Positions 1 through 45,225 of a stretch of DNA of 64,000 nt are shown here, piece after piece. How positions within the stretch are numbered: position 1 is the stretch's first letter; every line of letters begins with the position of its first letter. The notes under the pieces are model-generated. The model had not been told where the DNA came from, made no database searches, and saw only the letters and a list, made by a program, of their open reading frames with translations. Made by a program: the position numbers and the translations under genes. Source of the DNA: a virus (taxonomy: Duplodnaviria > Heunggongvirae > Uroviricota > Caudoviricetes); the IMG/VR virus record IMGVR_UViG_3300031857_000071, positions 18,271 to 82,270 of that record; one strand, written 5' to 3'.

Positions 1-757
1 TATCAATCTTATTAGAATCTTCCAGTAATATTAGACCCTGTTGATAAAAGTTCCAATCATGGAGTCTTCGTGTGCTTAACATTCCACTAGCAGTTTGTAA
101 GTGGGAAATTATCGAATTTGCTTGTGTGGTGGTTATGTTTGATGCCAAATTTCCAGTGCCATCCAAATAAATTGAAGAATTTAGTGTCGGATAGTCATTT
201 GTAATAATCACTGTATTTGCGGCAATATCATCACCCATGAATAAACTTGTCATGCATCCTAGCAACGGAGTTGAATCTTGAATACCATCGGTGTTATTCA
301 ACAACATCAACAAGTTTTGACCCACCTGTACAGAGGTATCATAGTCTGGATATTCAATCACAGGAGAACCGTTTTCTGGAACGGTAGATTCGGCTCTAGT
401 CACTCCAGCGACATTTGATGTGTGTTGCTTGAATAGATTTATTTCCGATAAAAGTGTGGTTGCTGATGATTGCAGACCTGCTCCATTAGCTGTATCATAT
501 GAAACAATCGTCAGCATTAGGTTGTATAGGTTCTGTGTACTCGATTGAAGTTCATTACATACATTCAATACTGGATTTTTGTAGTAATTTGTTGCTATGA
601 TTGTACCATTGGCCAGGTCACTTTTTTGCCATGGCTCAAGTGATATTGGTTGTGTGTTTAGAAAGTTTTTTGTATCCTGACTCAAGTAAATTGCATCACC
701 GAATTTACTTGTATCGAAACTGAAACTTAATCTGTTAAATACGTTTGCGCCTGACAT
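1..757 (-). CDS. Hypothetical virion/baseplate-module protein. N-terminal part only; the ORF continues past the window start.
   Basis: Open frame on the minus strand. ATG at 755-757 lies directly downstream of the spike ORF in the same operon. No stop codon before the window edge. Confidence 0.35.
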   Translation of the reverse strand, partial: MSGANVFNRLSFSFDTSKFGDAIYLSQDTKNFLNTQPISLEPWQKSDLANGTIIATNYYKNPVLNVCNELQSSTQNLYNLMLTIVSYDTANGAGLQSSATTLLSEINLFKQHTSNVAGVTRAESTVPENGSPVIEYPDYDTSVQVGQNLLMLLNNTDGIQDSTPLLGCMTSLFMGDDIAANTVIITNDYPTLNSSIYLDGTGNLASNITTTQANSIISHLQTASGMLSTRRLHDWNFYQQGLILLEDSNKID

Positions 758-768
758 TCAAATCTCCA

Positions 769-1548
769 TTATAACATTTTACGTAAAGGTGTGGAAGTTG
801 GACCCTTTGGTGCTTTATGTATATGCGAATTGTACTGCATTCTCATAGTCATCATTGTACCTAAAGTGTCTCTCACCATAGCACCTTGTGTAAGTGGTGT
901 CCAAAGGCTTACAGCACCAAAAATTGGTCCGAGTGTGTCGATACCGAGATTGGAACTGAGTTTCATACCTGCCGTTACGTTTTCAACCGCAGAAACTGAT
1001 TGTTTAGAAATGATTGAACCGGAGACGTTCAAATCACTGTTAATATTCACGGCTGATGCCGCTCTGATACTGACTGTACCAAGTTCTCCACCAGCAAAAA
1101 GTGAAATGTCACCACCTGAGGTTATCTCCACTTTTTCACCTGAATTGATTTTTGTTTTTCCGTTTACCTGTTGATATGAGTCACCATTAACTTGACTATA
1201 ACAATCACCAACTACATTAAAAACGGAATCTCCTTGCACCGTGATATTACAAACACCATTGATAAGTACATTATTGTTACTTGCAATAATTTCGTATTTG
1301 TCACCAAGAATTTTAACGATTTGTTGACCGTTCGCTTGTATTTCCGTGAAAGTACCGGTTCTATGTTGAATTCGAACCCTCTCAAATTCTGGTGTGTCAT
1401 CCATTTCTATAAAATGACCTGATTCCGAGCCAATTACTCTATTGAGTGGTGGGGATACATTCCAGTCTGATGGTGGTTCTGTCCAAGAATAATCAGGACC
1501 AGGTTTTTGAGCAATAAATTGCTGTTCGATTTGTGCTTCTGTTGCCAT
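769..1548 (-). CDS. Baseplate central spike beta-helix protein, resembling the gp5 C-terminal needle
   Basis: 259 aa with repetitive V/I-x-G-x short beta-helix-like repeats (VLINGVCNITVQGDSVFNVVGDCYSQVNGDSYQQVNGKTKINSG...). Starts 3 nt after the stop of the OB-fold ORF. Confidence 0.45.
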   Translation of the reverse strand: MATEAQIEQQFIAQKPGPDYSWTEPPSDWNVSPPLNRVIGSESGHFIEMDDTPEFERVRIQHRTGTFTEIQANGQQIVKILGDKYEIIASNNNVLINGVCNITVQGDSVFNVVGDCYSQVNGDSYQQVNGKTKINSGEKVEITSGGDISLFAGGELGTVSIRAASAVNINSDLNVSGSIISKQSVSAVENVTAGMKLSSNLGIDTLGPIFGAVSLWTPLTQGAMVRDTLGTMMTMRMQYNSHIHKAPKGPTSTPLRKML

Positions 1549-5805: not shown

Positions 5806-6236
5806 ACAGCGGCAAATTCACACCAAGAAACCCACAAAAGTATCGTGGAGACCCAAGAAACATCATTTATCGTTCGACATGGGAATGCCGAGTGATGAAT
5901 TGGCTTGACTCGAACGATACCATTCTAGAATGGGGTTCTGAGGAGTTCTCAATACCATATAAATCTCCGGTAGACAACCGTGTTCACCGTTATTTTCCTG
6001 ATTTTTACGTGAAAGTTAAGCAAAAAGATGATACAATCCGAGTGATGATTATTGAAGTAAAACCAGCAAAACAGACTAAACCACCAGAGAAAAAGAAGAA
6101 AGTCACGAAACAATACATCCAAGAAGTGGTTACTTGGGGTATTAATGAAGCAAAATGGAAAGCCGCAACCGAGTTCTGTCTAGACCGTGGATGGGCTTTC
6201 AAAGTATTAACAGAATATGATTTAGGATTAAAATGA
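5799..6236 (+). CDS. PD-(D/E)XK nuclease-fold protein
   Basis: Motif YFPDFYVKV...VMIIEVKP (PD ... E-x-K) is typical of the restriction-endonuclease-like fold. Opposite strand to the flanking structural genes. Confidence 0.35.
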   Translation: MAYSGKFTPRNPQKYRGDPRNIIYRSTWECRVMNWLDSNDTILEWGSEEFSIPYKSPVDNRVHRYFPDFYVKVKQKDDTIRVMIIEVKPAKQTKPPEKKKKVTKQYIQEVVTWGINEAKWKAATEFCLDRGWAFKVLTEYDLGLK

Positions 6237-7996
6237 TTAGATTGCATGTGTTGTCGGTTCCGCATACGGCATCGACAAAAGAGTATACGGTTTGCGCCTT
6301 TACTCAAAAAGTGATTAACTTTTGCAAAATGTACAAAGACATGGGTATGCATGTCATTCATTATGGACGTGATGACTCCGATGTTATCTGTGATGAACAT
6401 GTCACAGTAACAACACGTGCGCTGAATGAGAAGGTTTATGGTATATATGACTGGAAGAATCAAGGCCTAAAATACAATCAACAAGATGAGGTTTTCAAAA
6501 CATTCAACGATAACTGCATCAAAGAAATCGAAAAGCGTAAACAGCCGCACGATATTATTCTGTGTTTCTTTGGGCTGGCGCAGAAACCAGTTTGTGATGC
6601 ACACTCAGATTTGATTTGTGTTGAACCTTCTATTGGTTATCCGTCCTCCTTTGCACCATACAAAGTATATGAATCGTATGCTGTGATGCATGGTCTCCAA
6701 GGTCCAGACAAAGTAGCAACTGCCGAATATAAGTTCTATGATGTTGCGATTCCATCTGGTTTCGACCTGAGTGAATTTGAATACACTGAAAAGAAAGAAG
6801 ATTATTTCTTAATGTGTGGTCGTATGGTGTGGTCTAAAGGTGTTGACATTGCGGCTCAAGTGTGTGAACAACTTGGTGTGAAGTTGGTGTTGGCGGGCAC
6901 CACTTTTGGTCCAACCGATTGTAATGTCGGTGATACATGGCCTGCCCACGTTGAATATGTCGGTTATGCTGACGTTGAGAAACGAAAGAAACTCATGGCT
7001 GGTGCAAAAGGTTTGTTCTGCCCAACAATCTACAATGAGCCGTTTGGCTACGTAGCAATTGAAGCAATGTTATCGGGTACACCAGTCATCACAGTTGATT
7101 GGGGTGCATTCACAGAGACTGTACAGCACGGAGTGACTGGTTTCCGTTGCCGCACGTTTGAACAGTTTGTTTGGGCCGCTAAGAATATTGATACAATTTC
7201 TCCACGTGCATGTCGTGAATGGGCTGAAAAGAACTACAACTTCAATAAAATCGGTTCAATGTACAAAGAATACTTTGAATCGATTATCAACCTTTCCAAG
7301 GGTAGTGGTTGGTACACCAAGAATGATGAAAGAAAAGAACTTGAATGGCTTACCAAGACACAACCCACACAACCAAAGACGTTCAAAGAGATTCTAAACC
7401 AATATAACAGAATCAAAGATGGCAAAGTGCATTTTCTTCAGATTGGTGCCATGGATGGTGTAAAGCACGATGATCTATATCCGTATGTAATGAGTTACGA
7501 TTGGACTGGTGTTTTGGTTGAACCTCTACCAGATATGTTCGATAAACTGGTTGAGAATTATTCACTCAAAGATGGCCTAAAGTTTGAAAATTCCGCTATT
7601 GCTAACTCTGAAATCGTAACGATGTACCGTGTACCATCGGAATTGGTTGGAACTGATGGTATTCCCGATTGGGCTGAAGGTTGTTCTACGATGGTGCCAA
7701 AAACACATATTGAAGACATAGTACCACATATGGTTGAACAAGAAGTTAGGGGCATCACAATCTCTAAATTGTATGAAAAATATGGTAAACATTTCGACTT
7801 TATTCAGGTTGATACAGAGGGCTATGACTATGAAATATTCTTCCAGTTCCTTGAGAATGGATTCACAGCAGAATTGTTAAAGATTGAGATTGCACATATA
7901 ACTTATACAAAAGCGGTGTGGATGCGCTGGAAACTGGAACAAAGCGGTTATAAGACATTCATTGACGGATACGATTTAATAGCCTACCAGTTCTAG
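6233..7996 (+). CDS. Fusion protein: GT-B (group 1/GT4-like) glycosyltransferase plus FkbM-family methyltransferase
   Basis: GT1 motif EPFGYVAIEAMLSGTPVI (E-x7-E) in the N-terminal half. C-terminal half has FLQIGAMDGVKHDD ... FDFIQVDTEGYDYEI (Methyltransf_21/FkbM-like). Confidence 0.55.
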   Translation: MIRLHVLSVPHTASTKEYTVCAFTQKVINFCKMYKDMGMHVIHYGRDDSDVICDEHVTVTTRALNEKVYGIYDWKNQGLKYNQQDEVFKTFNDNCIKEIEKRKQPHDIILCFFGLAQKPVCDAHSDLICVEPSIGYPSSFAPYKVYESYAVMHGLQGPDKVATAEYKFYDVAIPSGFDLSEFEYTEKKEDYFLMCGRMVWSKGVDIAAQVCEQLGVKLVLAGTTFGPTDCNVGDTWPAHVEYVGYADVEKRKKLMAGAKGLFCPTIYNEPFGYVAIEAMLSGTPVITVDWGAFTETVQHGVTGFRCRTFEQFVWAAKNIDTISPRACREWAEKNYNFNKIGSMYKEYFESIINLSKGSGWYTKNDERKELEWLTKTQPTQPKTFKEILNQYNRIKDGKVHFLQIGAMDGVKHDDLYPYVMSYDWTGVLVEPLPDMFDKLVENYSLKDGLKFENSAIANSEIVTMYRVPSELVGTDGIPDWAEGCSTMVPKTHIEDIVPHMVEQEVRGITISKLYEKYGKHFDFIQVDTEGYDYEIFFQFLENGFTAELLKIEIAHITYTKAVWMRWKLEQSGYKTFIDGYDLIAYQF

Positions 7997-12261: not shown

Positions 12262-13674
12262 ATGGATTACAGAGTAGCAAGCAATATCAGAGGTAAATCT
12301 CTATCGTCAATGATGGCGGATAGAATCGCATCCGGTGGTTCTATTGGATCATCCATTAGAAGTTCCATCTCCGATAAACTGAAAGCAAGGGCAACCGGTG
12401 TCAAAGAAAAGTTTGATCCAATGAATATTGCACGTGCAATGACGGGTGGCGGTAGACTTGCTCCCGCAATTCTCGGTAGACTCACTGGTCGTTCACAGTC
12501 TGACATAAATTATTTTGCGGGTGATAAGAACAAAAAGGGTAGAAGTTACACACAAATTCCAACCTACATGAACACACCAGGTGAAGGCCTTGGTGGTTCA
12601 GCCGTTGATGTATTAAATAAAATGCTTGCATTCATGGTTAATTCCCGTGCAAGTGACTTAAAGAAAAAAGAAACGGCAAAACAATTTCTCGAAGAACAAA
12701 AGGTTGAAGAACAGCGCAGACAAGATGAATTCTTAGAGTTATTGAAAGTATATACCTCTTTAGGCACATCCACAGTGATAAAAGCCGAAGAAGGTGAAAA
12801 CATGATGGATAAGTTTAAGAGAATGCTGGATGCTCTTGCATATAAATTTCAAAAGATGTTGGATGCAATCAATGTCTTTAAAAATGCTAAAGCATTGGCT
12901 TCTCTTGTTGGTCTTCTAACTAATCCTCTCGGTTTGGCCATAGGTGCAATTATAGCCGCAACTTATGGATTGCAAAAATTAGCCGATAAAACACCAAACT
13001 TCTCCGTTCTTACACCACAAGAAGCACAGAATGTTTTGAACAGTAAAGATCCATTTGCAATTCAGCAAGAAGGTGGATATGATAAACTTGCCAACATAAT
13101 ACGAAATGGACCAGCAGAAGCACAGAAAGCATTGGACGATTTTAAGGCTGGAAGAATAACAGAACCTGAAATCAATAAATTGGGTGGTGTAACAAAACTT
13201 GAAGAAATTGCCAAACAAACCGGACTTGCGGTTCCCGAAAACGTAGCACTTCCAGATAAAGTTCAACCCAGACCTATAAGCCGTGGCCAAAGTCAAATGA
13301 TGTGGGACCAAAGATATGGTAAAGATTACAATCCAGATGGAACAAGAAAACCAACACAAGTTCCAAACACTGGCACATCACCGGCCGCCACGCCCGTACC
13401 TAATACACCACCGCCACCGCCAGCATCAAATCAATCAAGCGCAGAACCGGTTCAACAAACACCTGTTTCTGCAAGAATGAATAATGCTGTAGGTGAAAAT
13501 CAAGATTTGAATTTGATGGTAAATATGGACACACAAACGCCTGTGGCACCTATCATAACAACAAACACAAGTTCTGTTGATTTGCCTGATAGACCTATTC
13601 CTGCTACTGCATTAGTACGTGACAGGACTCCGATTCTTGCTCATGTTCTTAACGCATCTTTAGCACCAGTATAA
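12262..13674 (+). CDS. Virion protein paralogous at its N-terminus to the preceding gene, with a different C-terminal region
   Basis: N-terminus ...KFDPMNIARAMTGGGRLAPAILGRLTGRSQSDINYFAG versus ...RFDPMNIAKFLTGGSTLAPAIVGRLTGRSKEDIGYFAG in the upstream protein. Confidence 0.45.
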   Translation: MDYRVASNIRGKSLSSMMADRIASGGSIGSSIRSSISDKLKARATGVKEKFDPMNIARAMTGGGRLAPAILGRLTGRSQSDINYFAGDKNKKGRSYTQIPTYMNTPGEGLGGSAVDVLNKMLAFMVNSRASDLKKKETAKQFLEEQKVEEQRRQDEFLELLKVYTSLGTSTVIKAEEGENMMDKFKRMLDALAYKFQKMLDAINVFKNAKALASLVGLLTNPLGLAIGAIIAATYGLQKLADKTPNFSVLTPQEAQNVLNSKDPFAIQQEGGYDKLANIIRNGPAEAQKALDDFKAGRITEPEINKLGGVTKLEEIAKQTGLAVPENVALPDKVQPRPISRGQSQMMWDQRYGKDYNPDGTRKPTQVPNTGTSPAATPVPNTPPPPPASNQSSAEPVQQTPVSARMNNAVGENQDLNLMVNMDTQTPVAPIITTNTSSVDLPDRPIPATALVRDRTPILAHVLNASLAPV

Positions 13675-16774: not shown

Positions 16775-17079
16775 ATGTGTTGAACATGGTGGTTGGTTAT
16801 TCTGTTACGAGGAAACCAACCGAAACCCTAGTCAGCGTTTAGGCTGCCAATGCGAACTTTTCATCGTTTGCGTTTACTTTGATTTAGTTTTTACACCTGC
16901 TCTGGTGAGTTGTCCACTTCTGTACTTGTTGCCCTGTCGAAACCTGGTCATCCCCATCAAAAACACACCCCATTACAGCCCTCAGAGGTTTCTTTCATGT
17001 AAGACATGTGTTTTTGGTGGAGATGGGCGGAATCGAACCGCCGTCCAGAACACTTTTCTAGTTGCTTCATACAACCATA
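16775..17079 (-). ncRNA. ssrA: Circularly permuted (two-piece) tmRNA (ssrA). The acceptor piece is upstream and the coding piece downstream. Tag peptide ANDEKFALAA.
   Basis: Acceptor-piece 3' end ...GGACGGCGGUUCGAUUCCGCCCAUCUCCACCA ends at 17015, with a T-arm and 3' acceptor strand. About 60 nt downstream (5' end at 16955) is GGGGAUGACCAGGUUUCGACAGGG, compare E. coli GGGGCUGAUUCUGGAUUCGACGGG. GGGGAUG pairs with CAUCUCC including a G3-U wobble. Tag ORF GCA AAC GAU GAA AAG UUC GCA UUG GCA GCC UAA at 16839-16871. Confidence 0.8.
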
Positions 17080-17085
17080 GCCTCT

Positions 17086-17114
17086 ATTATAGAGGTTTTT
17101 TATTTAGGTGTCAA
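17086..17114 (-). promoter_or_regulatory. Consensus sigma70-type promoter for the tmRNA precursor
   Basis: Minus strand TTGACA - 17 nt - TATAAT, about 8 nt upstream of the inferred precursor 5' end. Confidence 0.6.
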
Positions 17115-17140
17115 GCGTTTTTGTAGTTTAAATGGTAAAC

Positions 17141-17794
17141 TTATGATTTTGGTTTAATACATTCCACACAGAGTGATTCAACTGCTCTTAGTGGATCATC
17201 GAAACGTAATTTGTCGTTCTGGTGTAAATCATAGTTTCCATCAGCATAGCTTGTTCTTCGAACATTTTCAAATCCAATCGAACTGAGAAGCCAGAGAAGT
17301 GTTTCAAAATCATATGTAGCTTTATGGTCGTGGTCATGCATGGCTGAGTTGAACAAAGAACCGCTTGTTCTCATCAAATGGGCCTTTTCTCTGAATCCTT
17401 CCATCTTCATGTAGGTTTCGAAAAAATGCATCTTTTTTGTTTTATATGCATCAATCCAGAACTCTAAATCTGGAACAATCAGTCTCATTTTTCCTCCAGG
17501 TTTTAATGCTCTGAAACATTCCTGTAGTATGAATAGGCCGTCCAGATAACTAACATGTTCTAAGAAGTGTGACTGATATATTCCCTCTAAAGAGTTGTCT
17601 GCGGCAGGAATGTCTTTAGTTAAATCGAAATTTAGATAGAACTTTCCGCTAGGCAGTTGAACAAAATCTTCATGTGGTCCATTAGGTTGAAAATCAATAT
17701 TCAAGTATGGTTCATCTTTATCGTCCGGACCTGAACCAAGATTGTAGTGAGAAAAACGGTCCGAATATTTTTTATATTTTATTGCATTAGTCAT
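17141..17794 (-). CDS. SAM-dependent methyltransferase
   Basis: LKPGGKMRLIVPD-type motif of class I methyltransferases. Confidence 0.45.
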   Translation of the reverse strand: MTNAIKYKKYSDRFSHYNLGSGPDDKDEPYLNIDFQPNGPHEDFVQLPSGKFYLNFDLTKDIPAADNSLEGIYQSHFLEHVSYLDGLFILQECFRALKPGGKMRLIVPDLEFWIDAYKTKKMHFFETYMKMEGFREKAHLMRTSGSLFNSAMHDHDHKATYDFETLLWLLSSIGFENVRRTSYADGNYDLHQNDKLRFDDPLRAVESLCVECIKPKS

Positions 17795-17795
17795 A

Positions 17796-18461
17796 TCAAT
17801 ACTGTAGTGCTGTCATATATTTAAATTCAGTTAGGTTTGTGATATCACCATAACCACCAACAGGCATGAGATTAAATGCTAAACTATAACGGGACTTGTT
17901 CGTATCATTCTTCGGAACAAAGTGCGGTAGATGAGATGGAAATATGATGAGCCTACCTTTAGATGCAGGTACAGCAAAATGATAGATAGAAAAATCATTT
18001 TGTATTTTATGATTCTTTTTTGGAATCATCTGAAACATTGCAGAAGTACCTGCATTTTTTTCGAATATTAATGCCGAATTTTCATCATATTCATCGTCAA
18101 AATACAACACACCTGAAATAAAACTATTCGGATGCACATGTGTTTTGTGTTCTTGTGAGTTAGTCTTGTTGTTGACCCACGATAACACATCAACCAAACC
18201 TTCAACTTCAAAACCCATAACTTCTGTTGCAAATTTTTTGGCATTTATCAGAATGTTATTTCTAATTGACGAAAGTTTTTCTAAACGAAGCACTTGCTTA
18301 TTCTCGGTATTTTCACCCCATATATCGCATACCTTTTCTCCACTTGGGAGTAGTTCTTCCACTCTATTTGTTTTTAATGAATACAATTCATCCTGAATTT
18401 CTTTGGTGATCTCCAGGTTTTGTATAAAAATTGGTGTTGGGAAAATAGGAATAACATTCAT
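17796..18461 (-). CDS. 2OG-Fe(II) oxygenase-family protein (cyanophage-type 2OG-FeII_Oxy_5-like)
   Basis: HKTHVHPNSFISGVLYF ... HLPHFV motif. Paralogous to the next gene. Confidence 0.5.
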   Translation of the reverse strand: MNVIPIFPTPIFIQNLEITKEIQDELYSLKTNRVEELLPSGEKVCDIWGENTENKQVLRLEKLSSIRNNILINAKKFATEVMGFEVEGLVDVLSWVNNKTNSQEHKTHVHPNSFISGVLYFDDEYDENSALIFEKNAGTSAMFQMIPKKNHKIQNDFSIYHFAVPASKGRLIIFPSHLPHFVPKNDTNKSRYSLAFNLMPVGGYGDITNLTEFKYMTALQY

Positions 18462-19168
18462 TATAAAACATCCCTATAATTAAATTGAGTAAGTTCTTCT
18501 GCTGAACCTAGACCATCTTTTGTTAGCAAATTAAATGCAAGGCTATATCTGTTAAAGGGTGTGGTGTTTAAATCAACTTGATGCACCAAAGTGGCCGGAA
18601 ATAACACCAAAGTTCCCTTGGAAACTTTAACAGTGGCGACTCGCCTAGTACTGAAAGGTGCTTCAGCAATTCCTGATATACATTCTGGAGGTAAATATTT
18701 CGGACGTAAAATAAATTCACTCTCTGAATCTGGATGCATTTTATTCGAAAAATGTAGCGGCATATTTTCCGTGTGTTCATCGAAAAAATATACTCCCGAA
18801 ATTATACTGTTTGGATGACTATGTGGCATGTGTTGATTATTCGGACGTTTTACTGTCACCCATGATAGCACATCTATCATTTCATTGGTGTCGATACCCA
18901 ATAAATCACGTGCAAATTCTTTTCCGGCGTATAGAATTTTTTTCCTCAAATCTTTACAAATGTCATCACGCAAAATCATAACATTTGTGGATACTGCACC
19001 ATAACCAGCAGGTTCTGTTCCTATAGGATGATTTAGTTCCGTATTCGTTAGATAATTTTGTAATTCATTCGATGGTTGATATTCGCCAATTGCAATAGGT
19101 TTAGCTAACACGGGATGCACTATTAAATTCAACATTTCATCATTATTTTCACTCATCATTTTCTCCAT
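18461..19168 (-). CDS. 2OG-Fe(II) oxygenase-family protein, paralog of the preceding gene
   Basis: HMPHSHPNSIISGVYFF ... TLVHQV. ATGA-type overlap with its neighbour. Confidence 0.5.
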   Translation of the reverse strand: MEKMMSENNDEMLNLIVHPVLAKPIAIGEYQPSNELQNYLTNTELNHPIGTEPAGYGAVSTNVMILRDDICKDLRKKILYAGKEFARDLLGIDTNEMIDVLSWVTVKRPNNQHMPHSHPNSIISGVYFFDEHTENMPLHFSNKMHPDSESEFILRPKYLPPECISGIAEAPFSTRRVATVKVSKGTLVLFPATLVHQVDLNTTPFNRYSLAFNLLTKDGLGSAEELTQFNYRDVL

Positions 19169-19174
19169 TTAAAA

Positions 19175-19738
19175 TTAAAAAGCCCAAGTAACAAATGACC
19201 ATCTCTCACCTTTGGTCACAGTTTCAACTCTATGTCGATACATAAAAGCTGAGGGAAAAATTAGAACATCTCCCTTTTTCATGTTTATTTTCAAATCATC
19301 AAACATTATAAATTCACCGCCTTCATAATCATCATTTAGACAACCAACAATAGATAGTAGAGGACTGCCAGAACCTTTTTCGAAAATACTCACAATATTA
19401 TCACTGTGTTCCGACATACTTGTTCCTGTCACATATCTATTTATTCTGAATTCAGATGTGTGTCTTAACTGGATATGAACGGGATGGCGATTCATATAGG
19501 AATTTATCCATTCAATACATTTTTTTGCCAGATAGTCGAGATGTTCACCTTCAAATACCAAATTCAAAAGTTCCTTATCCCTTCTCGTTGAAATATTCAT
19601 TGTTTTATTTGGATCATAACTTGTCCATGCATGTTCAATCCAGTCATCTCTTACGGAGTATTTTTTGATGGCACTGTCGCAAAATTCTTCAGGTAATACA
19701 CCCTTCATCAAATGAATATATTCATAAAGTTGTTTCAT
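19175..19738 (-). CDS. Prolyl-4-hydroxylase-like 2OG-Fe(II) oxygenase
   Basis: HSDNI (HxD) ... GGEF ... H ... RWSFVTWAF (RxS) arrangement. Confidence 0.5.
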   Translation of the reverse strand: MKQLYEYIHLMKGVLPEEFCDSAIKKYSVRDDWIEHAWTSYDPNKTMNISTRRDKELLNLVFEGEHLDYLAKKCIEWINSYMNRHPVHIQLRHTSEFRINRYVTGTSMSEHSDNIVSIFEKGSGSPLLSIVGCLNDDYEGGEFIMFDDLKINMKKGDVLIFPSAFMYRHRVETVTKGERWSFVTWAF

Positions 19739-19819
19739 GTTTCCTCACTAAAAAAATTAAAATCACGAATTATTTATATATAAATAGGAGGGTTAGTTAT
19801 AAAATAACGGAGAAATTAT

Positions 19820-21001
19820 ATGCCATTGACATTATCCACGGACAATCTTACTGCATCGGGACTTAGCCTAAGCGGTTCTGTCCCCACACCTTTCATTCCT
19901 GCACCAGGACCACAGACTTCAACTTATAATAGTACGTATGCAGGTGCCACCAGTAGAATAAGGCTTTTAAGTGCTCCGGTACCGGGAAGTATATATCCCC
20001 AGGCCTTTTTGGAAATTCCTATTCCAACACTTACTGATAATCAGTCTTATCCAGGTATTTCCGCAGGTCGAGTTCAGGGTGGTGACGGTGGAATCAGATT
20101 GATATCTAATTTAAACACATCGAATGATCCTGCCGCCAATCAAAACCGCTCCAACTTTTTAATGGGCGTTTATACTGATACTCCTGCGTCTAATACATAT
20201 CCTTTGCAAGTCGGCCGTAGATTCTCTCCTGGTGTTTCTGGACAGTCATCTTACCTTGGTGGACTTGCCGTTCTTGGTCAGACAACTATGGACTCCACTC
20301 CAATTGGCACAGCCGCCCAACCCGGCGGTGCATACACGCTTGATTTAGTTAGAAACGCACCTGCACCTATTTCTGCTCCAAGTGGAGCGGTGATGAGGAT
20401 GAGCGCCGGTGCACCAGGTGTAACAGCTTATTACGTCACTTTTCAACAAGGCGCAGAAAGAGGCTCAATATTTACTCCAGGATCAACAACAACTTATGCA
20501 ACCAGTTCAGACTATCGATTAAAAGATAATATTACTCCACTTGATTCTGAAGAAGAATTACAAAGAATCAATCAGTTACGTCCCCGTAAATGGAATTGGA
20601 AAACCAACCAAGATCCTGGAGTGGGCTTCATCGCACATGAACTTCAAGAAACATTTGAAGATGCGAATAAACTAGGTATGGTTTCAGGAAGCAAAGATTC
20701 TGTCACACGTAAGGGTAGAATTGTTGACGTTACAACAGGTGAACCAATTCATAGAGTGCCAAAAATAGATGAAACGACTGGTGAAGAAACTATAGAATAC
20801 TTTTACGTAGATGAACCAACTATTGAAGACGCCGCAAATCTGGCTGCCGATGGTAAAGAATGGGTATATCATCACGATGAACCACTCTATCAAGCAATCG
20901 ATACATCTTTCTTAGCTTCATCCACAGTAGCGGCTATTCAGGCTTTAACAAATAGAGTCACATCACTTGAATCTAGAGTTGCGGCACTTGAATCCATATA
21001 A
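19820..21001 (+). CDS. Tail fibre/spike-like structural protein with a C-terminal intramolecular chaperone (peptidase S74-type) domain
   Basis: SDYRLKDNITPL (SDxRxK autocleavage motif) followed by GFIAHELQETF and a C-terminal coiled-coil LTNRVTSLESRVAALESI. Confidence 0.6.
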   Translation: MPLTLSTDNLTASGLSLSGSVPTPFIPAPGPQTSTYNSTYAGATSRIRLLSAPVPGSIYPQAFLEIPIPTLTDNQSYPGISAGRVQGGDGGIRLISNLNTSNDPAANQNRSNFLMGVYTDTPASNTYPLQVGRRFSPGVSGQSSYLGGLAVLGQTTMDSTPIGTAAQPGGAYTLDLVRNAPAPISAPSGAVMRMSAGAPGVTAYYVTFQQGAERGSIFTPGSTTTYATSSDYRLKDNITPLDSEEELQRINQLRPRKWNWKTNQDPGVGFIAHELQETFEDANKLGMVSGSKDSVTRKGRIVDVTTGEPIHRVPKIDETTGEETIEYFYVDEPTIEDAANLAADGKEWVYHHDEPLYQAIDTSFLASSTVAAIQALTNRVTSLESRVAALESI

Positions 21002-21696
21002 CGAATTCTACTTGATTTCCTATCAAATATAATCATAAATTGATCTAAACGAATCATAACCTCAAGAGGGTCCACAAGACCCTCTTCCATTACCTTATTG
21101 AAAAGTCTTTTAGCCGAGTGATTGTCAACGGAATATGCAAAAGGTTCTCCCATGCATGGCCAGTTGCTATTGTGAAACAAAGGCTTATCATCAGAAAGGC
21201 AATGAATTGAATTTCTGGGAACATGTTCCTTTAGAGGTTCCATCAAAATTGCATCGTGTTCTAAAATAATACAAGGTTTACCCATACTCATGCATTTACT
21301 CCATGCCGCCATGTGAGTAAGTATTCTACAAACCTGATTGTGATTTAATCTCGATTTGAGTCTAACTTGATTAGTCCATTCCTGTGACTCATAATAAAGT
21401 GGTGGAAAAACTTCCTTGATTTTTACATTATCATAAGCATGTGGTGACACTTCAGTACGATCTAGAAAGTTGAAAGATTCAATAAGATGCAAACTGTAAC
21501 CAAATCTTTCCGCAGATGAGGTTGCTCTTTTATGCATGGGTCCTTGCAATACAATAACATCCGAAATACCAAAATCACTATAGTTTGGAACAAGATTCAT
21601 CCCTCTTGTATCCAATCTATGAAAAAGTGGTAGATGTGCATTGGGATTATTTCTGTAGTTATCTGTTCTGTATGTCATAATGAAACACCCGGACAA
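20938..21696 (-). CDS. Glycosyltransferase family 25 (LPS-type) protein
   Basis: CRILTHMAAWSKCMSMGKPCIILEHDAIL matches the GT25 core (C.LSH..W......IILEDD). Confidence 0.45.
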   Translation of the reverse strand: MSGCFIMTYRTDNYRNNPNAHLPLFHRLDTRGMNLVPNYSDFGISDVIVLQGPMHKRATSSAERFGYSLHLIESFNFLDRTEVSPHAYDNVKIKEVFPPLYYESQEWTNQVRLKSRLNHNQVCRILTHMAAWSKCMSMGKPCIILEHDAILMEPLKEHVPRNSIHCLSDDKPLFHNSNWPCMGEPFAYSVDNHSAKRLFNKVMEEGLVDPLEVMIRLDQFMIIFDRKSSRIRYMDSSAATLDSSDVTLFVKA

Positions 21697-23048
21697 GTTG
21701 TAATTTCTTTTCGAACTTGTATTGAATCATATTTTGTGCATATTGTTGACACTTTTTCACAATCAAATAACTGTGTTGCATAAAGTTTTGTGTATACGAA
21801 TTCGAATTTAGATGAATCGCAAAAAACATCATTTACATTTTTAATTCCTTCTAACAGACATGCGGTGAACAGTCTTTTCGCCATAGCAGGATCTATGGCA
21901 TACGCATGTTGGCCCATTGGAAAGAAATAATTTTCACTTCCATAATTTAGCATTGCATTGTCTAATTTTTCTTTTTGTGTATTTTCATTTAGATAGTCGA
22001 TAAGATAACAGTAGTCGTTTTTTAAGTTTTTATCACTTATCATTTCTTGTGCAATATAATTGTGTCCAAGATAGTGTAAACAATTATAAAAAGGAAAATG
22101 TGTGTATGGTTGAAGCATAACAGCATCATGTTCCAAAATCACAATTGGTTTATTAATTGTTATGCAATGTGCCCATAATGCCACGTGGCTTAACGTACAA
22201 CCAATCTCAGGATAAGACATTTTCGAATCGACAACTTTGATCCATTTCATATAATCATTATTCTTCAGATGATCTGGTGTTTTTATTTGTTTCCTGTCTG
22301 AGCCATCATATCCATGAAACAATTTATATTTCATTCCGGCTCTCTGGAGTGACTGTATACACAACTCCAACCTTGTATCCGATATGATGTTATCTTTCAG
22401 ACAAATTATATACGCACCTTCAATCTCAGAATTGTAATTGCTGTTTAGATTCACTCCATCATCATGTTTAGTATGAAATTTGTGTTTAACACTTTTTGGT
22501 ATTTTTGAACACCAAATTTGACCAAATTGAGTTACATCAGATAGGCATGTTGTAACTGCCTCTACTACACCCGGAAAGTCTTTTACACCAAAGTCATCAC
22601 CGGCTATGACACCACCTTCTTTCATTTTCGGTAGCCACGCTTGAATGTCTTTCATAACACCCTCGAAAGAATGATCTCCATCTATAAACAAAAAGTCGAT
22701 TGACTTATCTGGATATCTTGATGCTAATGAAGAACTGTCACCAACAATCGGATTGACGATGTGTTTGACCGGCTCAATATTAGCCAGAAATTCTTTTTGA
22801 AGTGTATTGTTCTGAATGGACTCATATGCTTGATGTTCACCTGAACCCATAAAAGAATCTATGGCATCAAACTTGATTTTTTTACCTGAGTTGTTAATCT
22901 CAACTCCCATCATAACTGTGGATTTACCCTTCCAACAACCAATCTCAACAAAATGGGCGCCGTCAGAAGCGGTGTCAACCATTCTTTTGTATAATTTGGT
23001 TTGCTCTACAGTTAACCATCCTTCAATATCCCAATGATAGTATTCCAT
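21675..23048 (-). CDS. Fusion protein: class I SAM methyltransferase (Methyltransf_24-like) N-terminal half plus GT25 glycosyltransferase C-terminal half
   Basis: N-term HFVEIGCWKGKST ... FLFIDGDHSFEGV. C-term GCTLSHVALWAHCITINKPIVILEHDAVM. Confidence 0.5.
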   Translation of the reverse strand: MEYYHWDIEGWLTVEQTKLYKRMVDTASDGAHFVEIGCWKGKSTVMMGVEINNSGKKIKFDAIDSFMGSGEHQAYESIQNNTLQKEFLANIEPVKHIVNPIVGDSSSLASRYPDKSIDFLFIDGDHSFEGVMKDIQAWLPKMKEGGVIAGDDFGVKDFPGVVEAVTTCLSDVTQFGQIWCSKIPKSVKHKFHTKHDDGVNLNSNYNSEIEGAYIICLKDNIISDTRLELCIQSLQRAGMKYKLFHGYDGSDRKQIKTPDHLKNNDYMKWIKVVDSKMSYPEIGCTLSHVALWAHCITINKPIVILEHDAVMLQPYTHFPFYNCLHYLGHNYIAQEMISDKNLKNDYCYLIDYLNENTQKEKLDNAMLNYGSENYFFPMGQHAYAIDPAMAKRLFTACLLEGIKNVNDVFCDSSKFEFVYTKLYATQLFDCEKVSTICTKYDSIQVRKEITTCPGVSL

Positions 23049-23076
23049 AATTACTCCATAATATATTAATCTGTTT

Positions 23077-23736
23077 TTATCTATTATTCTTATAGAAAGA
23101 AATATGTTCTATTAGGTTATGTATATGGTCTTCCGTACTCTCAATAAAAATAAGTGGACTTTCATTCTCAACCGCCATAACAATCACAATCTGGTCAATC
23201 GGAACACCAACATGTTCTTCATACATGCCAGAATATGCAGTACATTGTGCAAAATAGTCCTGTATGTCTTCCTTCTGTTTAATCTTCTTTGAAGTTTTAA
23301 AGTCAATTACAGATAGTACACCGTCCCATTCAGCAATCAAGTCAACACGACCAGCCATACCGATGCGTTCAGACCAGAGTGCCTGTTCAATGTAGTGTAT
23401 ATTATCGATTCTTTGTATCGATGGAATTAATGTGCGGAACATCTCCACAGCATCAGGCATTTCCCGTACCCAATCGATCTTTTCATTCTTTAGATACCGT
23501 TCTGCTAGGTCATGCACACGATTACCACGACCTGTGGCAAGTTTGGAAATACGGTTGGCTTCAACTTCACCAACCCTATTTCTCCACTCCATGATTGCCT
23601 GTTTTTTCATTGCACCAACAACAGTCGTAACCGATGGCAAGCGTTTACCGCTAGGTGAAGTGTAATAGCGTTTGCCGTCTGAGTGTGTTTCCGATTTTAG
23701 GTCAGGAAGGACCATTGGTGAGCAATGTGTAAACAT
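23077..23736 (-). CDS. PD-(D/E)XK nuclease (RecB/Cas4-like fold, no Cys cluster)
   Basis: GRVDLIAEWDGVLSVIDFKTSKK (D ... D-x-K). Confidence 0.4.
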   Translation of the reverse strand: MFTHCSPMVLPDLKSETHSDGKRYYTSPSGKRLPSVTTVVGAMKKQAIMEWRNRVGEVEANRISKLATGRGNRVHDLAERYLKNEKIDWVREMPDAVEMFRTLIPSIQRIDNIHYIEQALWSERIGMAGRVDLIAEWDGVLSVIDFKTSKKIKQKEDIQDYFAQCTAYSGMYEEHVGVPIDQIVIVMAVENESPLIFIESTEDHIHNLIEHISFYKNNR

Positions 23737-24776: not shown

Positions 24777-25058
24777 TTACCATTCTCTGCCCATTTTCGT
24801 TTTGTGTGATTTCGCCAACGTATTTCCTGGAACAGTATCCTTAATTCTCTGAATAACCCCTTTCTCGAATGCTGAATCGTAAGACTTGGTTCCTGGAACG
24901 CTCATACGAGCCGCATCTGAGAACCTAGGCAAATCTTCTGGTGCAAAGTAACGCTCCAGATGTGTGTTATCTTCTTTGAATTTATCGTATTCGGATAGTT
25001 TAAGAACATGTTCTTCAACTTCTCCGGTGTTTGCATTTTTAAATGTGTAAGTAGGCAT
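24777..25058 (-). CDS. Hypothetical protein
   Basis: 93-aa ORF. Confidence 0.3.
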   Translation of the reverse strand: MPTYTFKNANTGEVEEHVLKLSEYDKFKEDNTHLERYFAPEDLPRFSDAARMSVPGTKSYDSAFEKGVIQRIKDTVPGNTLAKSHKTKMGREW

Positions 25059-25657
25059 TATAAGTTAAAAACAATTGAAATTCGTGGATCGGTAGATTGA
25101 TTTGGCATCACTTCGTGATATAGCCATGCAGGCCACATCATCAGTAAACCTGGATATGGTTTGTAATCAAAGTGTTTGTATGCATACCAGTTTGTTGGAT
25201 CTTTCACGTGAAACATGTAATCGAAAAAATCTCTAAATGGTTGATTAGGTGAAAACCTAATGTCGGCGGAACCTGGTGGAGTTTGCAGGTAGAAAATACC
25301 TGAGATAGTACATTGTGAGTGTACGTGTTTTCCGTGTGCAGAGCCTTCTTTGAAGTAATTCAGGAAGAAGTATGGATTAAATTTGATTGGACCTGGGTCA
25401 TAACCTTGTAGTTCCAAAAAGTTGCGACCCTTACCCATAATGAATTGACAGAATTCAGCATAGTCCGGATGCGTAGGCAAATCTAAGTTCATGTTATGCG
25501 TGGTTTTACCATTCGCATAAAAATCTTGATTCGATGGTTGTGTTTCAAAATAGTTCTTTACTTTGGGTAGAAGAACATCAACCCATTCTAGATGGTCTTC
25601 TCGGCCAATCGTAGATGGGAAAAAATTATCAAGTATCATATGGTAAAAATACCTCAA
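25058..25657 (-). CDS. 2OG-Fe(II) oxygenase-like protein
   Basis: GKHVHSQCTISGIFYLQTP ... WPAWLYHEV resembles the cyanophage 2OG-FeII_Oxy_5 pattern. Confidence 0.4.
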   Translation of the reverse strand: MRYFYHMILDNFFPSTIGREDHLEWVDVLLPKVKNYFETQPSNQDFYANGKTTHNMNLDLPTHPDYAEFCQFIMGKGRNFLELQGYDPGPIKFNPYFFLNYFKEGSAHGKHVHSQCTISGIFYLQTPPGSADIRFSPNQPFRDFFDYMFHVKDPTNWYAYKHFDYKPYPGLLMMWPAWLYHEVMPNQSTDPRISIVFNL

Positions 25658-41201: not shown

Positions 41202-42263
41202 AATGTTCTTTCAATATGGATAAGCCGAGAAAGTCTTTGCGTCCTTCATTAGACAATATGATGCACGGTTCATCCATCCGTCATTCTTCCGATGTGCCCG
41301 TGGTCCACGGAAACGGATTTTGTATTTACCAGGGTAAACAGAACGAAACTCATTCAGAAGATGAATTGGTATGTTAGTGAACACTGCGGCAGTATTCATC
41401 CGAGAATAGAATCGAAAAATATTAGACATTATGCCATCCATGGTTCATCAAAAGTATATGCATCAGATGCCAGATTCATCTCCTGAATTACAATAGAGAT
41501 ATGATATTCAGCATCAGTCCGAGAATAAAAGGTTTCTACAAGGGTTCCAGAATAGAATACCTCATAGAGTCCATCATCATTTTCAATAATATCAAACATT
41601 ATTCGTCCTCATCAACAGTAGCAAAGAGTTTAGCACCTTCGTCCATAAAGACAGAGAATGCCATCATAGTCTTTTCAGAATAGATCATTCTCCCATGCTT
41701 TTGAATGTCCTGAAGTAACTCCAAGAAACCAATTCCAAGAAAATTACGTTCTTTATCCAAGATAGAAATTGCAGTAGTGATTTTCATAGTAACTCCGTCA
41801 TTAAACCTTATAAACCTTTTCTTCAACAACGGGATAAACTGCCCTGAATGTAATCTTAGAACAATCAGAATAACGTTTCTTCAAGAAATTCCGAATTGCG
41901 GATACAGACTTAAAATAACCAGTAGCTTCAATCCACTGTCCTTCAAAATAAACCGAATACTGTTTCATAGTCATCCTTTGTTATCAATCAATAGAGAGAA
42001 TTATACACGTTCCAAGGAGAAAGGCAAGTAACCAAAAAGTTCTCCATCCTTCCGGTCAACTATTCACCGTTTGTAGTGAACCGGACGCTCATAACGACCT
42101 TCAGAGTCCCGATAAAGAGAGACATAATGACCGTATTTACTTCCATCATCAAAAGTATATGAGAAGGTAGAATCATAGGAGAGTGGAGGGAAGTTTAGTG
42201 CCCAAGATTCCAATAATCCTTCAGATTCAAGAGCAGAATTGAGGGTGGGAAAGAAGTTTTGTT

Positions 42264-42413
42264 TCATACGAATAAATCTCCATAATATTCTTCATCAAAA
42301 GCATCAAAATCCTTTTGTATCCATTCAATAGTATAACCATTAGAAGAATACTCAGAAGCCATTTTCTCCAATTCAGCGAGAGCCATAGAAGGAGAAAGTT
42401 TCTGATTAGCCAT
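42264..42413 (-). CDS. Small hypothetical protein. The track ORF 42264-42575 is trimmed to an internal Met.
   Basis: MANQKLSPSMALAELEKMASEYSSNGYTIEWIQKDFDAFDEEYYGDLFV. The upstream part of the track ORF is low-complexity and lies in the non-coding repeat region. Confidence 0.3.
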   Translation of the reverse strand: MANQKLSPSMALAELEKMASEYSSNGYTIEWIQKDFDAFDEEYYGDLFV

Positions 42414-42621
42414 TAGAGAGAGGTTGGAGCAATGCATAAAGTTATTAGAATCTTTATGTGCGGAGACCTGAATGAATTGGCGGGTGTTTGTGTTTGTCTG
42501 TGTCATGGATGGTATTATAGCGGAGATGGTAGGAATGGCAATAGGGTGGATGGAGGTGTTGCTCAAATACAACATGGAACATGGAATCTTTATAGGAAGA
42601 ACCAGTATGCAATATAGTGCA

Positions 42622-42641
42622 TGTGGATAACCTGTGGATAA
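42622..42641. promoter_or_regulatory. Two tandem perfect DnaA-box 9-mers (TTATCCACA on the minus strand) 11 bp apart
   Basis: Plus strand tgtggataacctgtggataa. Confidence 0.4.
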
Positions 42642-42964
42642 CTTTTTGGAATGTGCATGGAATGTGTAGCGGGACCTTAATTACTGACCAGTCAGTCAGT
42701 ATGTCGCTGGATGTGTCGCTGGCCATCGGCAGTGTGAAGTTCTTATTTAGTCTTAGTTGCTGGCTGTGAGCGCCTGAAATTTTCTCAGAGTGTCTCAGAG
42801 TACCACAGCACGTTCCAGTGGGTTCCAGCACGTTCCAGCATGTCCCTTGACGGTGTGGTAGAGTACCATTCAGAGCAGTGCAGAGGTGCTGGAGTGTGTT
42901 TGGGTGCTTCACGCATCCAGCGGGCAGCCTCTACGTCCATCCCCAGTGTGCTGTTCGAACCATG

Positions 42965-43010
42965 TGTCTATTATAACCGAAAAAACGCCACCTGGCAACC
43001 ACCAGGCGGC
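42965..43010 (-). terminator. Rho-independent terminator whose 3' arm and T-run overlap an early promoter
   Basis: Minus strand GCCGCCTGGTGGTTGCCAGGTGGC + GTTTTTTCGG. Also TTGCCA-N17-TATAAT. Confidence 0.5.
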
Positions 43011-43032
43011 TCACTGTTGTTTCTTTACAACA

Positions 43033-43260
43033 TCATTCTTCCTCAGAGAATCCTTCAGAGAGGACTATCTGGTCCTCATAGTAGTTCCGTTCCTCCTCCA
43101 TGCACAGGTTACCCTCTACCTCGAACACCAGGTCCGTGGCAGTCTTTTCATCACACCCAGTGGTGGACTTCACAAATGCAATAATGTCCTCGAATGCATC
43201 GCCATTGGAGATGCAGGTTTCAATATCCATCAGCAGGTCTTTCATCTTACTCATCATCTT
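43033..43260 (-). CDS. Small acidic hypothetical protein. The start is trimmed to avoid overlap with the upstream gene.
   Basis: MSKMKDLLMDIETCISNGDAFEDIIAFVKSTTGCDEKTATDLVFEVEGNLCMEEERNYYEDQIVLSEGFSEEE. GC-rich codons. Confidence 0.35.
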   Translation of the reverse strand, partial: KMMSKMKDLLMDIETCISNGDAFEDIIAFVKSTTGCDEKTATDLVFEVEGNLCMEEERNYYEDQIVLSEGFSEEE

Positions 43261-43726: not shown

Positions 43727-43742
43727 GTTTCGTCCTTTGTTG

Positions 43743-43798
43743 AATGAATGATTGTATTATACAGGTTCTGGTTGGTTTGGCAACCATTACTTGACCGG
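43743..43798 (-). promoter_or_regulatory. Repeat cassette R1: inverted repeat TTGACC-N5-GGTCAA plus early promoter TTGCCA-N17-TATAAT
   Basis: Plus strand attatacaggttctggttggtttggcaaccattacttgaccggattggtcaac, upstream of the gene starting at 43726. Confidence 0.55.
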
Positions 43799-45201: not shown

Positions 45202-45225
45202 TCACCTTTCACATTAAAAACACAA

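Follow-up and report, generated by a model that had tools for sequence, protein, structure and literature searches.

Accessory clusters of glycan-type genes and numerous 2-oxoglutarate (2OG)-dependent oxygenases are already known from T4-like aquatic phages, where both are unexplained. Clusters of the lipopolysaccharide (LPS) type, likewise of unexplained function, lie near phoH and tRNA genes in T4-like cyanophages (PMC3037559); in the cyanomyoviruses P-SSM2, S-SM2 and S-SSM7, such genes have been proposed to be functionally linked, and they lie near phoH and an RNA gene (Sullivan et al. 2010, PMC3037559). Giant viruses decorate virion proteins: PBCV-1 encodes A064R, which joins two glycosyltransferase (GT) domains to a methyltransferase (MT) domain, together with a separate methyltransferase, A061L (PMC9614988), while L230 of mimivirus combines a GT with a lysyl hydroxylase and acts on viral collagen-like proteins (PMC9614988). 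Here we describe a cassette in which oxygenases, glycosyltransferases and methyltransferases surround a single tail-fibre gene. It occupies positions 17141–23048 of a 64,000-nucleotide stretch (the window, by which we mean all of the DNA analysed) from an uncultured virus, IMG/VR record IMGVR_UViG_3300031857_000071 (positions 18,271 to 82,270), and is a discrete mobile accessory insertion in a variable hot spot. We tentatively favour the reading, drawn from sequence comparison, that the fibre is the substrate of the cassette enzymes, which would hydroxylate its prolines before adding sugars and methyl groups.

The cassette is 5–6 kb long (<6 kb) and holds seven open reading frames (ORFs). Their coordinates and strands had been given by an earlier sequence-only reading of the window, and an ORF check returned the same ones; the Pfam domains also agreed, except for that of the smaller of two GT25 glycosyltransferases. 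On the minus strand lie a class-I S-adenosylmethionine (SAM) methyltransferase (17141–17794, 217 aa; Methyltransf_11, 26.4 bits against a cut-off of 21.2), two PF13759-type 2OG-Fe(II) oxygenases, namely Oxy5a (17796–18461, 221 aa; 2OG-FeII_Oxy_5, 72.7 bits) and Oxy5b (18461–19168, 235 aa; 2OG-FeII_Oxy_5, 56.3 bits), and a prolyl 4-hydroxylase (P4H)-type 2OG-Fe(II) oxygenase of family PF13640, Oxy3 (19175–19738, 187 aa; 2OG-FeII_Oxy_3, 49.8 bits, cut-off 27). Oxy3 opens the oxygenase operon. An 81-nt spacer (19739–19819) separates it from the fibre gene (19820–21001, 393 aa), which is transcribed in the opposite direction, away from Oxy3. As had been claimed, the fibre gene is the sole plus-strand gene among the minus-strand enzymes. 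Beyond it follow, again on the minus strand, a small divergent GT25-like glycosyltransferase and a fusion of a methyltransferase with a GT25 domain (MT::GT25; 21675–23048, 457 aa; Methyltransf_24, 79 bits, and Glyco_transf_25, 63.7 bits, cut-off 24). The ORF of the small GT25 spans 20938–21696, although its true start is probably the ATG at 21678, as called in other alleles, which gives a protein of 246 aa (20938–21678). An AT-rich element, ATTAATATATTAT (23058–23070, minus strand), stands directly upstream of the MT::GT25 start and marks the proximal boundary of the cassette. The hot spot is bordered on this side by the backbone exonuclease gene exo (23077–23736, minus strand) and on the other, outside the cassette, by a two-piece (permuted) transfer-messenger RNA (tmRNA) gene (16781–17128, minus strand; Rfam RF01850 beta_tmRNA, 155 bits; also called by ARAGORN).

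With respect to the cyanomyovirus LPS clusters, the common ground is a T4-like aquatic backbone with sporadic accessory genes of glycan type that stand, as they do here, near phoH and an RNA gene. The cassette adjoins the tmRNA, is separated from phoH by exo and one small ORF, and is carried by a minority of the relatives. A tblastn search found no orthology to the cyanophage clusters, and, unlike them, the cassette has P4H-type and PF13759 oxygenases together with a small S74 fibre that is encoded on the other strand, and its many diverged alleles move as a unit. Megablast of the region found no DNA-level relative among 50,697 phage records, and tblastn of the fibre, MT::GT25 and the small GT against cultured phages gave partial, distant matches only; thus, no close DNA or protein match to the cassette was seen in cultured phages. 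We found no account of a mobile unit in which a Pro-rich S74 fibre is joined with P4H-type oxygenases, phage-specific GT25s and methyltransferases.

The mobility of the cassette was examined in 51 related viral contigs, which were fetched with the conserved exonuclease as an anchor and onto which the neighbouring window proteins were mapped. In the backbone, gp32, four small genes, a cell-wall hydrolase and the tmRNA lie on one side; exo, phoH and a backbone oxygenase lie on the other. Close relatives are 85–97% identical over this backbone. What lies between exo and the tmRNA varies, and in two contigs (L004 and L020) the two directly abut. Among the exo-anchored contigs, the cassette was found only in L001/L002 and the identical fragment L052; in L001/L002 it has the same order and the inverted fibre, with protein identities of 36–53% versus about 90–97% for the flanks. 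Relatives with 88–95% identical flanks carry none of the cassette genes at the site, and about 25 relatives without the fibre are also without the enzymes there.

Further alleles came from protein searches. The fibre, when searched against a collection of 5.8 billion proteins, returned full-length orthologues of 82, 66, 64, 62 and 46% identity and two longer relatives; every readable context contains one or two PF13759 genes, an Oxy3 divergent from the fibre, a small GT25 convergent with it, and MT::GT25. An MT::GT25-based search added a 46%-identical relative, present on at least 24 contigs with the same cassette beside exo and phoH, in a genome that also encodes CsgF and CsgG. Nine distinct alleles (the window, L200, L202, the P0005 contig, L204, L001/L002, L206–208, L211 and L213/214) thus share the order Oxy5(n)-Oxy3-[opposite-strand fibre]-GT25s-MT::GT25, with fibre identities of 38–83%. 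The sequence-only reading had proposed that the fibre and the enzymes be checked for co-inheritance. They are indeed linked in nine alleles and jointly absent from the roughly 25 relatives mentioned above, and no independent variation of the two was found among the relatives.

One allele places the block elsewhere. In L206–208, the five-gene core is found between homologues of the window genes at 47.9–48.2 kb and 48.3–48.6 kb, a site about 25 kb from the window's exo/tmRNA junction. The DNA similarity of the two contexts stops about 22 nt upstream of the MT::GT25 ATG, with ATTAATATATTAT inside the similar part; the element is present in the window, L200 and L202, and in L206 despite the different backbone site, and could be a promoter or ribosome-binding region. 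Given that one allele occupies another backbone site, we conclude that the block moves as a unit.

It could be argued that a hot spot of this kind simply exchanges unrelated accessory genes, which would then be neighbours with no common function. The site is hypervariable, and in relatives it carries a wide range of unrelated cargo; T4-like cyanophages have many 2OG oxygenases, in scattered positions (PMC3037559), and a fourth PF13759 gene of the window, beside phoH (25058–25657, minus strand; Pfam), is a conserved backbone gene outside the cassette (66–97% identical in relatives). Moreover, a cassette-enzyme homologue within 8 kb of an S74 fibre was found at 0 of 78 other S74 loci. However, mere neighbourhood does not account for an order and orientation kept down to 30–50% protein identity in nine alleles and at two backbone sites, nor for the fact that neither the fibre nor the enzyme half was seen alone at the exo–tmRNA site. 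The conserved spacer of bidirectional late-promoter type and a proline bias of the fibre that fits the class of the neighbouring enzyme, both described below, also speak against it. We regard this explanation as improbable.

The spacer between Oxy3 and the fibre (...TTATTTATATATAAATAGG...) contains two copies of the T4-type late-promoter motif TATAAATA placed back-to-back, one at 19771–19778 (minus strand) toward Oxy3 and one at 19779–19786 (plus strand) toward the fibre. Each is about 34 nt from its start codon, and both genes have a Shine-Dalgarno sequence. Only five such octamers exist in the 64-kb window, two of them in this spacer; similarly, TATAAAT, the motif by which late promoters have been annotated in T4-like cyanophages (PMC3037559), has four correctly oriented intergenic sites in the window, two in the spacer and the others before gp2 and the baseplate hub. 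Despite the divergence of the spacers, (N)ATAAATA is directed toward the fibre in 7/7 alleles and toward the Oxy3 operon in 5/7. The spacer motifs may accordingly be read, on their sequence and placement, as putative late promoters.

The plus-strand protein is matched by PHROGs to tail-fibre families via its C-terminal half, where it has a Peptidase_S74 domain (PF13884, residues 230–283) well above the cut-off (51.4 bits against 22). Residues 1–229 (19820–20506) constitute the mature part and residues 230–393 (20507–21001) the S74 intramolecular chaperone domain. The chaperone probably cleaves itself off at the motif S230-D-Y-R-L-K235, in which S230, D231, R233 and K235 do not vary across 44 aligned homologues. 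In an AlphaFold2 (AF2) monomer model, the chaperone domain is predicted with a per-residue confidence score (pLDDT) of 80–97 and has a helix at 362–392. The C-terminal Peptidase_S74 domain, the invariant S-D-x-R-x-K and the terminal helix are common to other S74 fibres and spikes, such as those of K1F (endoNF) and the L-shaped fibre pb1 of T5; compared with these, the cassette fibre stands alone as a protein of very small size (393 aa), rich in proline, encoded outside the structural module and flanked by enzymes. The next S74 protein outward in similarity (P0012) lies in an ordinary podovirus structural module without such enzymes.

The mature part, which is presumed to be the exposed or receptor-binding portion and is the candidate substrate, has no detectable homology beyond its own alleles. 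In the window, its 229 residues include 23 Pro, 27 Ser, 26 Thr and 27 Gly but no Lys, and it is also rich in Ala. A hydroxylysine or collagen-type reading was considered for this allele and rejected, since the mature fibre is without lysine. Pro accounts for 6.5–10.0% of the mature parts of ten linked fibres (10% in the window). For comparison, 162 S74 fibres were taken as unlinked: 110 other small S74 proteins have a median of 2.3% and a maximum of 5.3%, and 52 fibres, those at whose loci the absence of the enzymes was verified, have a median of 2.1% and a maximum of 4.3%. The linked fibres are 3–4 times richer in Pro, and the separation is complete (Mann-Whitney p = 3e-7), although the ten are mutually homologous, with mature parts down to 30% identity, and hence are not ten independent observations. 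Ser, Thr, Gly and Lys contents are alike in linked and unlinked fibres. Within the linked fibres, Pro-Gly (32 observed versus 15.9 expected) and Ala-Pro (25 versus 12.6) are each enriched about 2-fold; TPFIPAPGPQTS and NAPAPISAPSG would be candidate peptide substrates of Oxy3.

From the observed gene content, linkage, block mobility, relative rates, composition bias and motif conservation, we infer the activities of the enzymes and the identity of their substrate as follows. The fibre would be of the small homotrimer type, with a Pro-rich mature part of about 230–280 residues, and would be folded and then freed by its C-terminal S74 intramolecular chaperone. Fibre and oxygenases would be made jointly, late in infection, from the back-to-back late promoters. 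The P4H-type enzyme, perhaps together with the PF13759 enzymes, would hydroxylate prolines of the fibre, in which X-Pro-Gly and Ala-Pro are enriched. The two GT25s would then use the hydroxylated residues, or Ser/Thr, as attachment sites for a short O-linked glycan, and the methyltransferase domain or domains would cap it. The outcome would be a decorated, fast-diversifying fibre for receptor binding or shielding. Modification of the fibre is favoured because of the Pro enrichment of the linked fibres and the late motifs before the fibre (7/7) and the oxygenase operon (5/7). With less assurance, we consider it possible that the cassette is a portable post-translational modification kit for a single tail fibre, in which the P4H-type enzyme hydroxylates prolines and phage-specific GT25s follow with a methyl-capped O-glycan; it would then be the first counterpart, in a prokaryotic virus, of hydroxyproline- or collagen-type glycosylation. 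It is possible to the same limited degree that this kit and its substrate co-evolve and hop between sites as a host-range module.

Oxy3 has the HxD...H iron triad and the RxS 2OG-binding motif of its family in 8/8 alleles, and its weak sequence matches in the PDB are the PKHD-type hydroxylase PiuC (E 5e-4) and a Bacillus prolyl 4-hydroxylase (E 0.04); no substrate of PiuC-type hydroxylases was found in the accessible literature. Oxy5a and Oxy5b are tandem paralogues, as the sequence-only reading had supposed (35% identity, E 4e-36). The nearest solved relatives of Oxy5a are the uncharacterised proteins 3BVC and 2RG4; it keeps the HxHPNS...H...RxS motifs, and HxHPNS...H is present in 15/15 PF13759 proteins of the cassettes. 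Their copy number varies, with a single copy in L206 and a PhyH-like gene between the two copies in L204.

The class-I methyltransferase is a distal, optional member of the cassette: it is 93–94% identical to that of the window in L200/L202 and 55% identical in L204, and is missing from L002, L206 and L213. Its distal position is taken in two contigs by a conserved 113-aa protein with a HEKIH sequence (HExxH, metalloprotease-like), at 551–892 (minus strand) of L211 and 12432–12773 (plus strand) of L213. The two-domain architecture of MT::GT25 recurs in about 40 database clusters. Its PDB matches are 6G7D, a "methyltransferase domain protein" (E 9e-8) that we take to be a mycobacterial sugar 1-O-methyltransferase, and, weakly, the GT25 structure 8XC8. 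A scan of viral contigs with an MT::GT25 alignment returned mostly stand-alone methyltransferase domains, which are of no use for linkage, and one scan of metagenome contigs gave no further full-length alleles.

Two GT25 enzymes had been claimed for the cassette. For the fused domain this stands (63.7 bits), whereas the small ORF stays below the Pfam cut-off (20 bits against 24) and yet is a true divergent paralogue, with a BLASTP E-value of 3e-14 to the fused GT25 domain and the LEHD motif in common. The small GT25 is found in every allele readable on that side. LEHD occurs in 8/8 fused GT25 domains and in 6/8 small ones, and is aligned with F-E-D-D of 8XC8, the canonical EDD/DxD position; a pattern scan of 185,579 bacterial and archaeal species genomes found no GT25 of the LEHD type. 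PHROG 61 matches both domains, which raised the idea of a fusion of GT25 and oxygenase, but eight longer homologues of GT25 gave no confirmation of it. The fibre and small-GT25 genes are convergent, and their 3′ ends share 64 nt in the window (20938–21001), 42–64 nt in most alleles and 4 nt in L002, so that the two transcripts would be mutually antisense at their ends.

Enzymes of these families could also form a module for hypermodification of DNA or nucleotides, comparable to T-even glucosylation or to TET/JBP-linked systems, with the fibre as a passenger. GT25 (PF01755) and Methyltransf_24 (PF13578) are listed near phage 5-methylpyrimidine dioxygenases of the TET/JBP type (preprint 10.1101/2025.08.14.668559), and PHROGs labels the family of the MT::GT25 methyltransferase domain "DNA methyltransferase". 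The oxygenases, however, are of PF13640 and PF13759 rather than TET_JBP (PF12851 has no match in the cassette), and Pfam recognises neither a DNA cytosine or adenine methyltransferase nor a hydroxymethylase there, while the solved structure that the methyltransferase domain matches best, 6G7D, is taken above to be that of a sugar methyltransferase. Furthermore, the cassette is optional among near-identical genomes and always accompanied by the fibre, and its oxygenases seem, from their motif, to be expressed late. We consider hypermodification very improbable.

The rates at which the parts of the cassette evolve were compared with the window for L200, L202, L204 and L002. The mature part of the fibre is 75, 59, 35 and 30% identical, respectively, and its chaperone part 93, 81, 51 and 49%; the enzymes are 90–95, 76–93, 44–72 and 35–52% identical. 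The exonuclease is at 99, 98 and 95% in L200, L202 and L002, with no value for L204. The ratio of nonsynonymous to synonymous substitution rates (dN/dS) is 0.01–0.03 for the exonuclease, 0.06–0.24 for the enzymes, 0.12–0.17 for the chaperone part and 0.31–0.43 for the mature part. Among the enzymes, the class-I methyltransferase (0.06–0.10), the small GT25 (0.08–0.10) and Oxy5a (0.09–0.11) are slow and Oxy3 is the fastest (dN/dS 0.24; 76% identity in L202 and 44% in L204). Values of 0.06–0.24 show that purifying selection acts on the enzymes and that their genes are functional. The highest rate is that of the mature fibre, which is what an exposed receptor-binding part would lead one to expect.

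The most serious alternative is that the enzymes act not on the fibre but on the host. Certain 2OG-dependent enzymes, such as KdoO and LpxO, hydroxylate LPS, and in T5 the receptor-binding gene is linked with the receptor-blocking gene llp. The fibre could likewise be a receptor-binding protein whose companion enzymes remodel, in the infected cell, the same surface glycan (the core of LPS or lipooligosaccharide, LOS) or lipid A. Progeny would be spared from adsorbing to debris, or superinfecting phages would be excluded, and fibre and enzymes would travel jointly because specificity and masking must match; co-inheritance and co-divergence are predicted equally well by this alternative. The pedigree of the GT25 family agrees with it. 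Pfam names the family "LPS biosynthesis protein", it is best known for synthesis of the LPS/LOS core, and JGI names MT::GT25 a [quoted passage not shown]. The cyanophage LPS gene clusters near phoH and tRNAs (PMC3037559) are a precedent. In addition, no allele has a late-type motif upstream of MT::GT25, and the operon that this gene heads follows genes of early/middle type (exo and phoH).

The contexts of more distant GT25s bear on the same issue. GT25 relatives of 30–39% identity were found in other viral contigs in three types of context, and the enzyme families of the cassette are in general not linked to fibres. In L081–L087, tandem GT25 genes accompany methyltransferases and no S74 fibre is nearby. 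In L091 (170–13673), the GT25 gene belongs to a heptose/sugar-nucleotide cluster (RfaE/HldE-like protein, epimerase, cupin and GT2-MT fusion). On the flanks of this cluster are genes for an RCC1-repeat protein of 1328 aa and for a collagen-like fibre of 768 aa, whose G-x-y triplets contain Lys; a collagen-type hydroxylysine or glycan decoration system in a phage is a possible interpretation of L091. In L212, MT::GT25 and the small GT25 are flanked by two fibre-like proteins that are rich in glycine (Gly_rich_2 in one case), and after the GT pair comes a membrane protein resembling fatty-acid (FA) desaturases/hydroxylases, which cannot act on a soluble fibre. The Pro-rich S74 fibre and any detectable oxygenase of the cassette type are both missing from L212, a joint absence that counts for modification of the fibre. 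The L212 protein p194, in which HxD...H...R could be seen by eye, has no profile similarity to 2OG oxygenases (hhalign probability <2%). A precomputed "GP38" label of its 328-aa protein was not reproduced by a Pfam scan, and the protein is only glycine-rich and fibre-like. An N-terminal module common to the L212 glycine-rich proteins and island proteins of L009, L015 and L018 is weakly supported (E 0.04). The GT pair is thus separable from the Pro-rich fibre and the oxygenases, yet tends to adjoin fibre-like genes.

These LPS-related names and precedents, the three contexts and the missing late motif all weigh against modification of the fibre, and so do several properties of the cassette itself. 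The phage DxD motif is the variant E-H-D, and in two alleles of the small GT25 it is degenerate (MEHN and LEND). P4H-type homologues in cultured cyanophages are single genes scattered among replication genes. The mature part of the fibre is uninformative in the AF2 monomer (pLDDT <50), and its richness in Pro may in part be inherited rather than independently selected.

Remodelling of the host surface would nevertheless leave unexplained both the 3–4-fold Pro enrichment of the linked fibres and the P4H-type enzyme as the invariant divergent neighbour of the fibre. The late-type motif of the oxygenases, back-to-back with that of the fibre, would be late for a change of the envelope before lysis. 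No bacterial counterpart of the LEHD-type GT25 was detected in the species genomes scanned, and no lipid- or membrane-enzyme domain was recognised in the cassette proteins of the window by family scans, which did not cover signal peptides or transmembrane segments. We therefore consider remodelling rather unlikely, if a good deal less so than hypermodification or chance neighbourhood. The sequence-only reading had left the choice between a modified fibre and a cassette for LPS remodelling; its fibre-enzyme linkage is upheld and the Pro bias and late motifs favour the modified fibre, while L212 and L091 keep the other alternative alive.

If the enzymes do modify the fibre, the nearest parallels would be in eukaryotes and their viruses. 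In the Skp1 pathway of Dictyostelium and Toxoplasma, and in plant Hyp-O-glycosylation, a P4H-type enzyme acts first and soluble GTs then build a short glycan on hydroxyproline; the likeness to the cassette is one of enzyme class only, as the GT families differ. A fusion of GT and MT, a separate MT, and a 2OG hydroxylase coupled to a GT are features that recall the PBCV-1 and mimivirus enzymes, here at the level of gene architecture alone. Those enzymes are cytoplasmic and independent of host machinery, and the same logic is proposed for the cassette. The hosts differ, however (algae and amoebae versus bacteria), as do the families, which are GT25/LEHD, PF13640 and PF13759 here; and unlike the substrate of mimivirus L230, the candidate acceptor is Pro or Ser/Thr in a non-collagen fibre that, in the window allele, is lysine-free. 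For the alternative of a changed receptor, the parallel would be the T5-like phages, in which receptor-binding pb5/oad is linked with llp; LPS-modifying functions of phages also exist. Both arrangements would be co-inherited host-range units composed of a receptor-binding gene and a divergent gene or gene set possibly acting on the receptor, although llp encodes a lipoprotein and the cassette encodes oxygenases, GTs and MTs of cytoplasmic type.

Gene content and family scans identify the window as part of a T4-like myovirus of an uncultured aquatic lineage. Genes resembling gp5, gp48, gp2, the tail tube and gp26 lie at 0.8–10 kb, gp32 lies at 13.7–14.6 kb, and ribonucleotide reductase and RNase H are found farther along; the cultured phages nearest in gp32 are cyanomyoviruses, at about 61% identity. 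The fibre had been described as far from the baseplate module. It is outside the structural module, but the distance is relative, given that baseplate-hub and tail-tube genes, at 0.8–13.7 kb, are about 6 kb away in the same window. A second glycosyltransferase-methyltransferase fusion is encoded within the baseplate/tail module, between the gp48-like and gp2-like genes (6233–7996, plus strand, 587 aa; GT4-type Glycos_transf_1 and FkbM-type Methyltransf_21; phrog_3408, E 6e-125), and adds another candidate for a link between virion genes and glycan chemistry. The alternative insertion site (48159–48374 of the window) is at the edge of a patch of high G+C, 42000–48000, in which G+C is 0.46–0.51 versus about 0.37 elsewhere and many ORFs overlap on both strands. 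The patch has no Rfam match, and its PHROG matches are of unknown function only (phrog_1250 and phrog_1617).

Other relatives that lack the cassette carry 1–4 kb of unrelated cargo at the exo–tmRNA site: a DUF7936 protein with another that is rich in Ser/Thr/Gly, a tail-fibre-type protein with Gly_rich_2, a trio of paralogous repeat proteins, outer-membrane protein (OMP)-like barrels, a secreted nuclease and homing endonucleases. The repeat proteins are three tandem paralogues of about 320 aa in L011 (5337–8306, plus strand) with repeats of the type GGDKAIFGYG...TNLVSNTGVVASDVTGVGTAR, and neither Pfam nor PHROGs matches them; in L204, a comparable 332-aa repeat protein comes right after the cassette (6789–7787, minus strand), and both may belong to another class of accessory surface proteins. 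In L011 (9793–10356), L018 (12348–12770), L023 (7584–8015) and L030 (3450–3911), the interval from the tmRNA to the cell-wall hydrolase encodes small proteins that resemble OMP beta-barrels; they have a signal peptide and a C-terminal Phe and match YfaZ weakly. The hot spot of L030 also holds a secreted non-specific endonuclease.

The tmRNA gene is kept in nearly all relatives, and ARAGORN predicts the tag peptide ANDEKFALAA for it; a perfect sigma-70 consensus (TTGACA-17-TATAAT) stands at 17114–17086. Two-piece phage tmRNAs have been reported for Melnitz-like phages (PMC9004378). In several relatives (L005–L008, L018/L019 and L023), the final ~45 nt of the tmRNA recur 0.3–0.5 kb downstream, and the two copies bracket inserted DNA, which looks like the scar of integration at the tmRNA 3′ end within the phage genome. 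ORFs for GIY-YIG-like homing endonucleases adjoin the tmRNA in L002 (16350–16868, minus strand) and L005 (11087–11476, minus strand); the tmRNA match of L002 ends at about model position 265, and so the gene may be disrupted there.

Taken together, decoration of the fibre, if true, would mean that phage receptor-binding proteins can bear virus-encoded hydroxylation and glycosylation, a layer of host-range determination and of shielding from immunity or proteases that is hidden from sequence-based prediction of receptor-binding proteins and that has so far been documented mainly for giant viruses. It would also provide a concrete substrate for some of the 2OG-Fe(II) oxygenases that abound, unexplained, in aquatic T4-like phages, and for their "LPS-type" genes; the role of both has been a question since the first cyanophage genomes. 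If host LPS is remodelled instead, the cassette would be a compact case of matched receptor recognition and masking.

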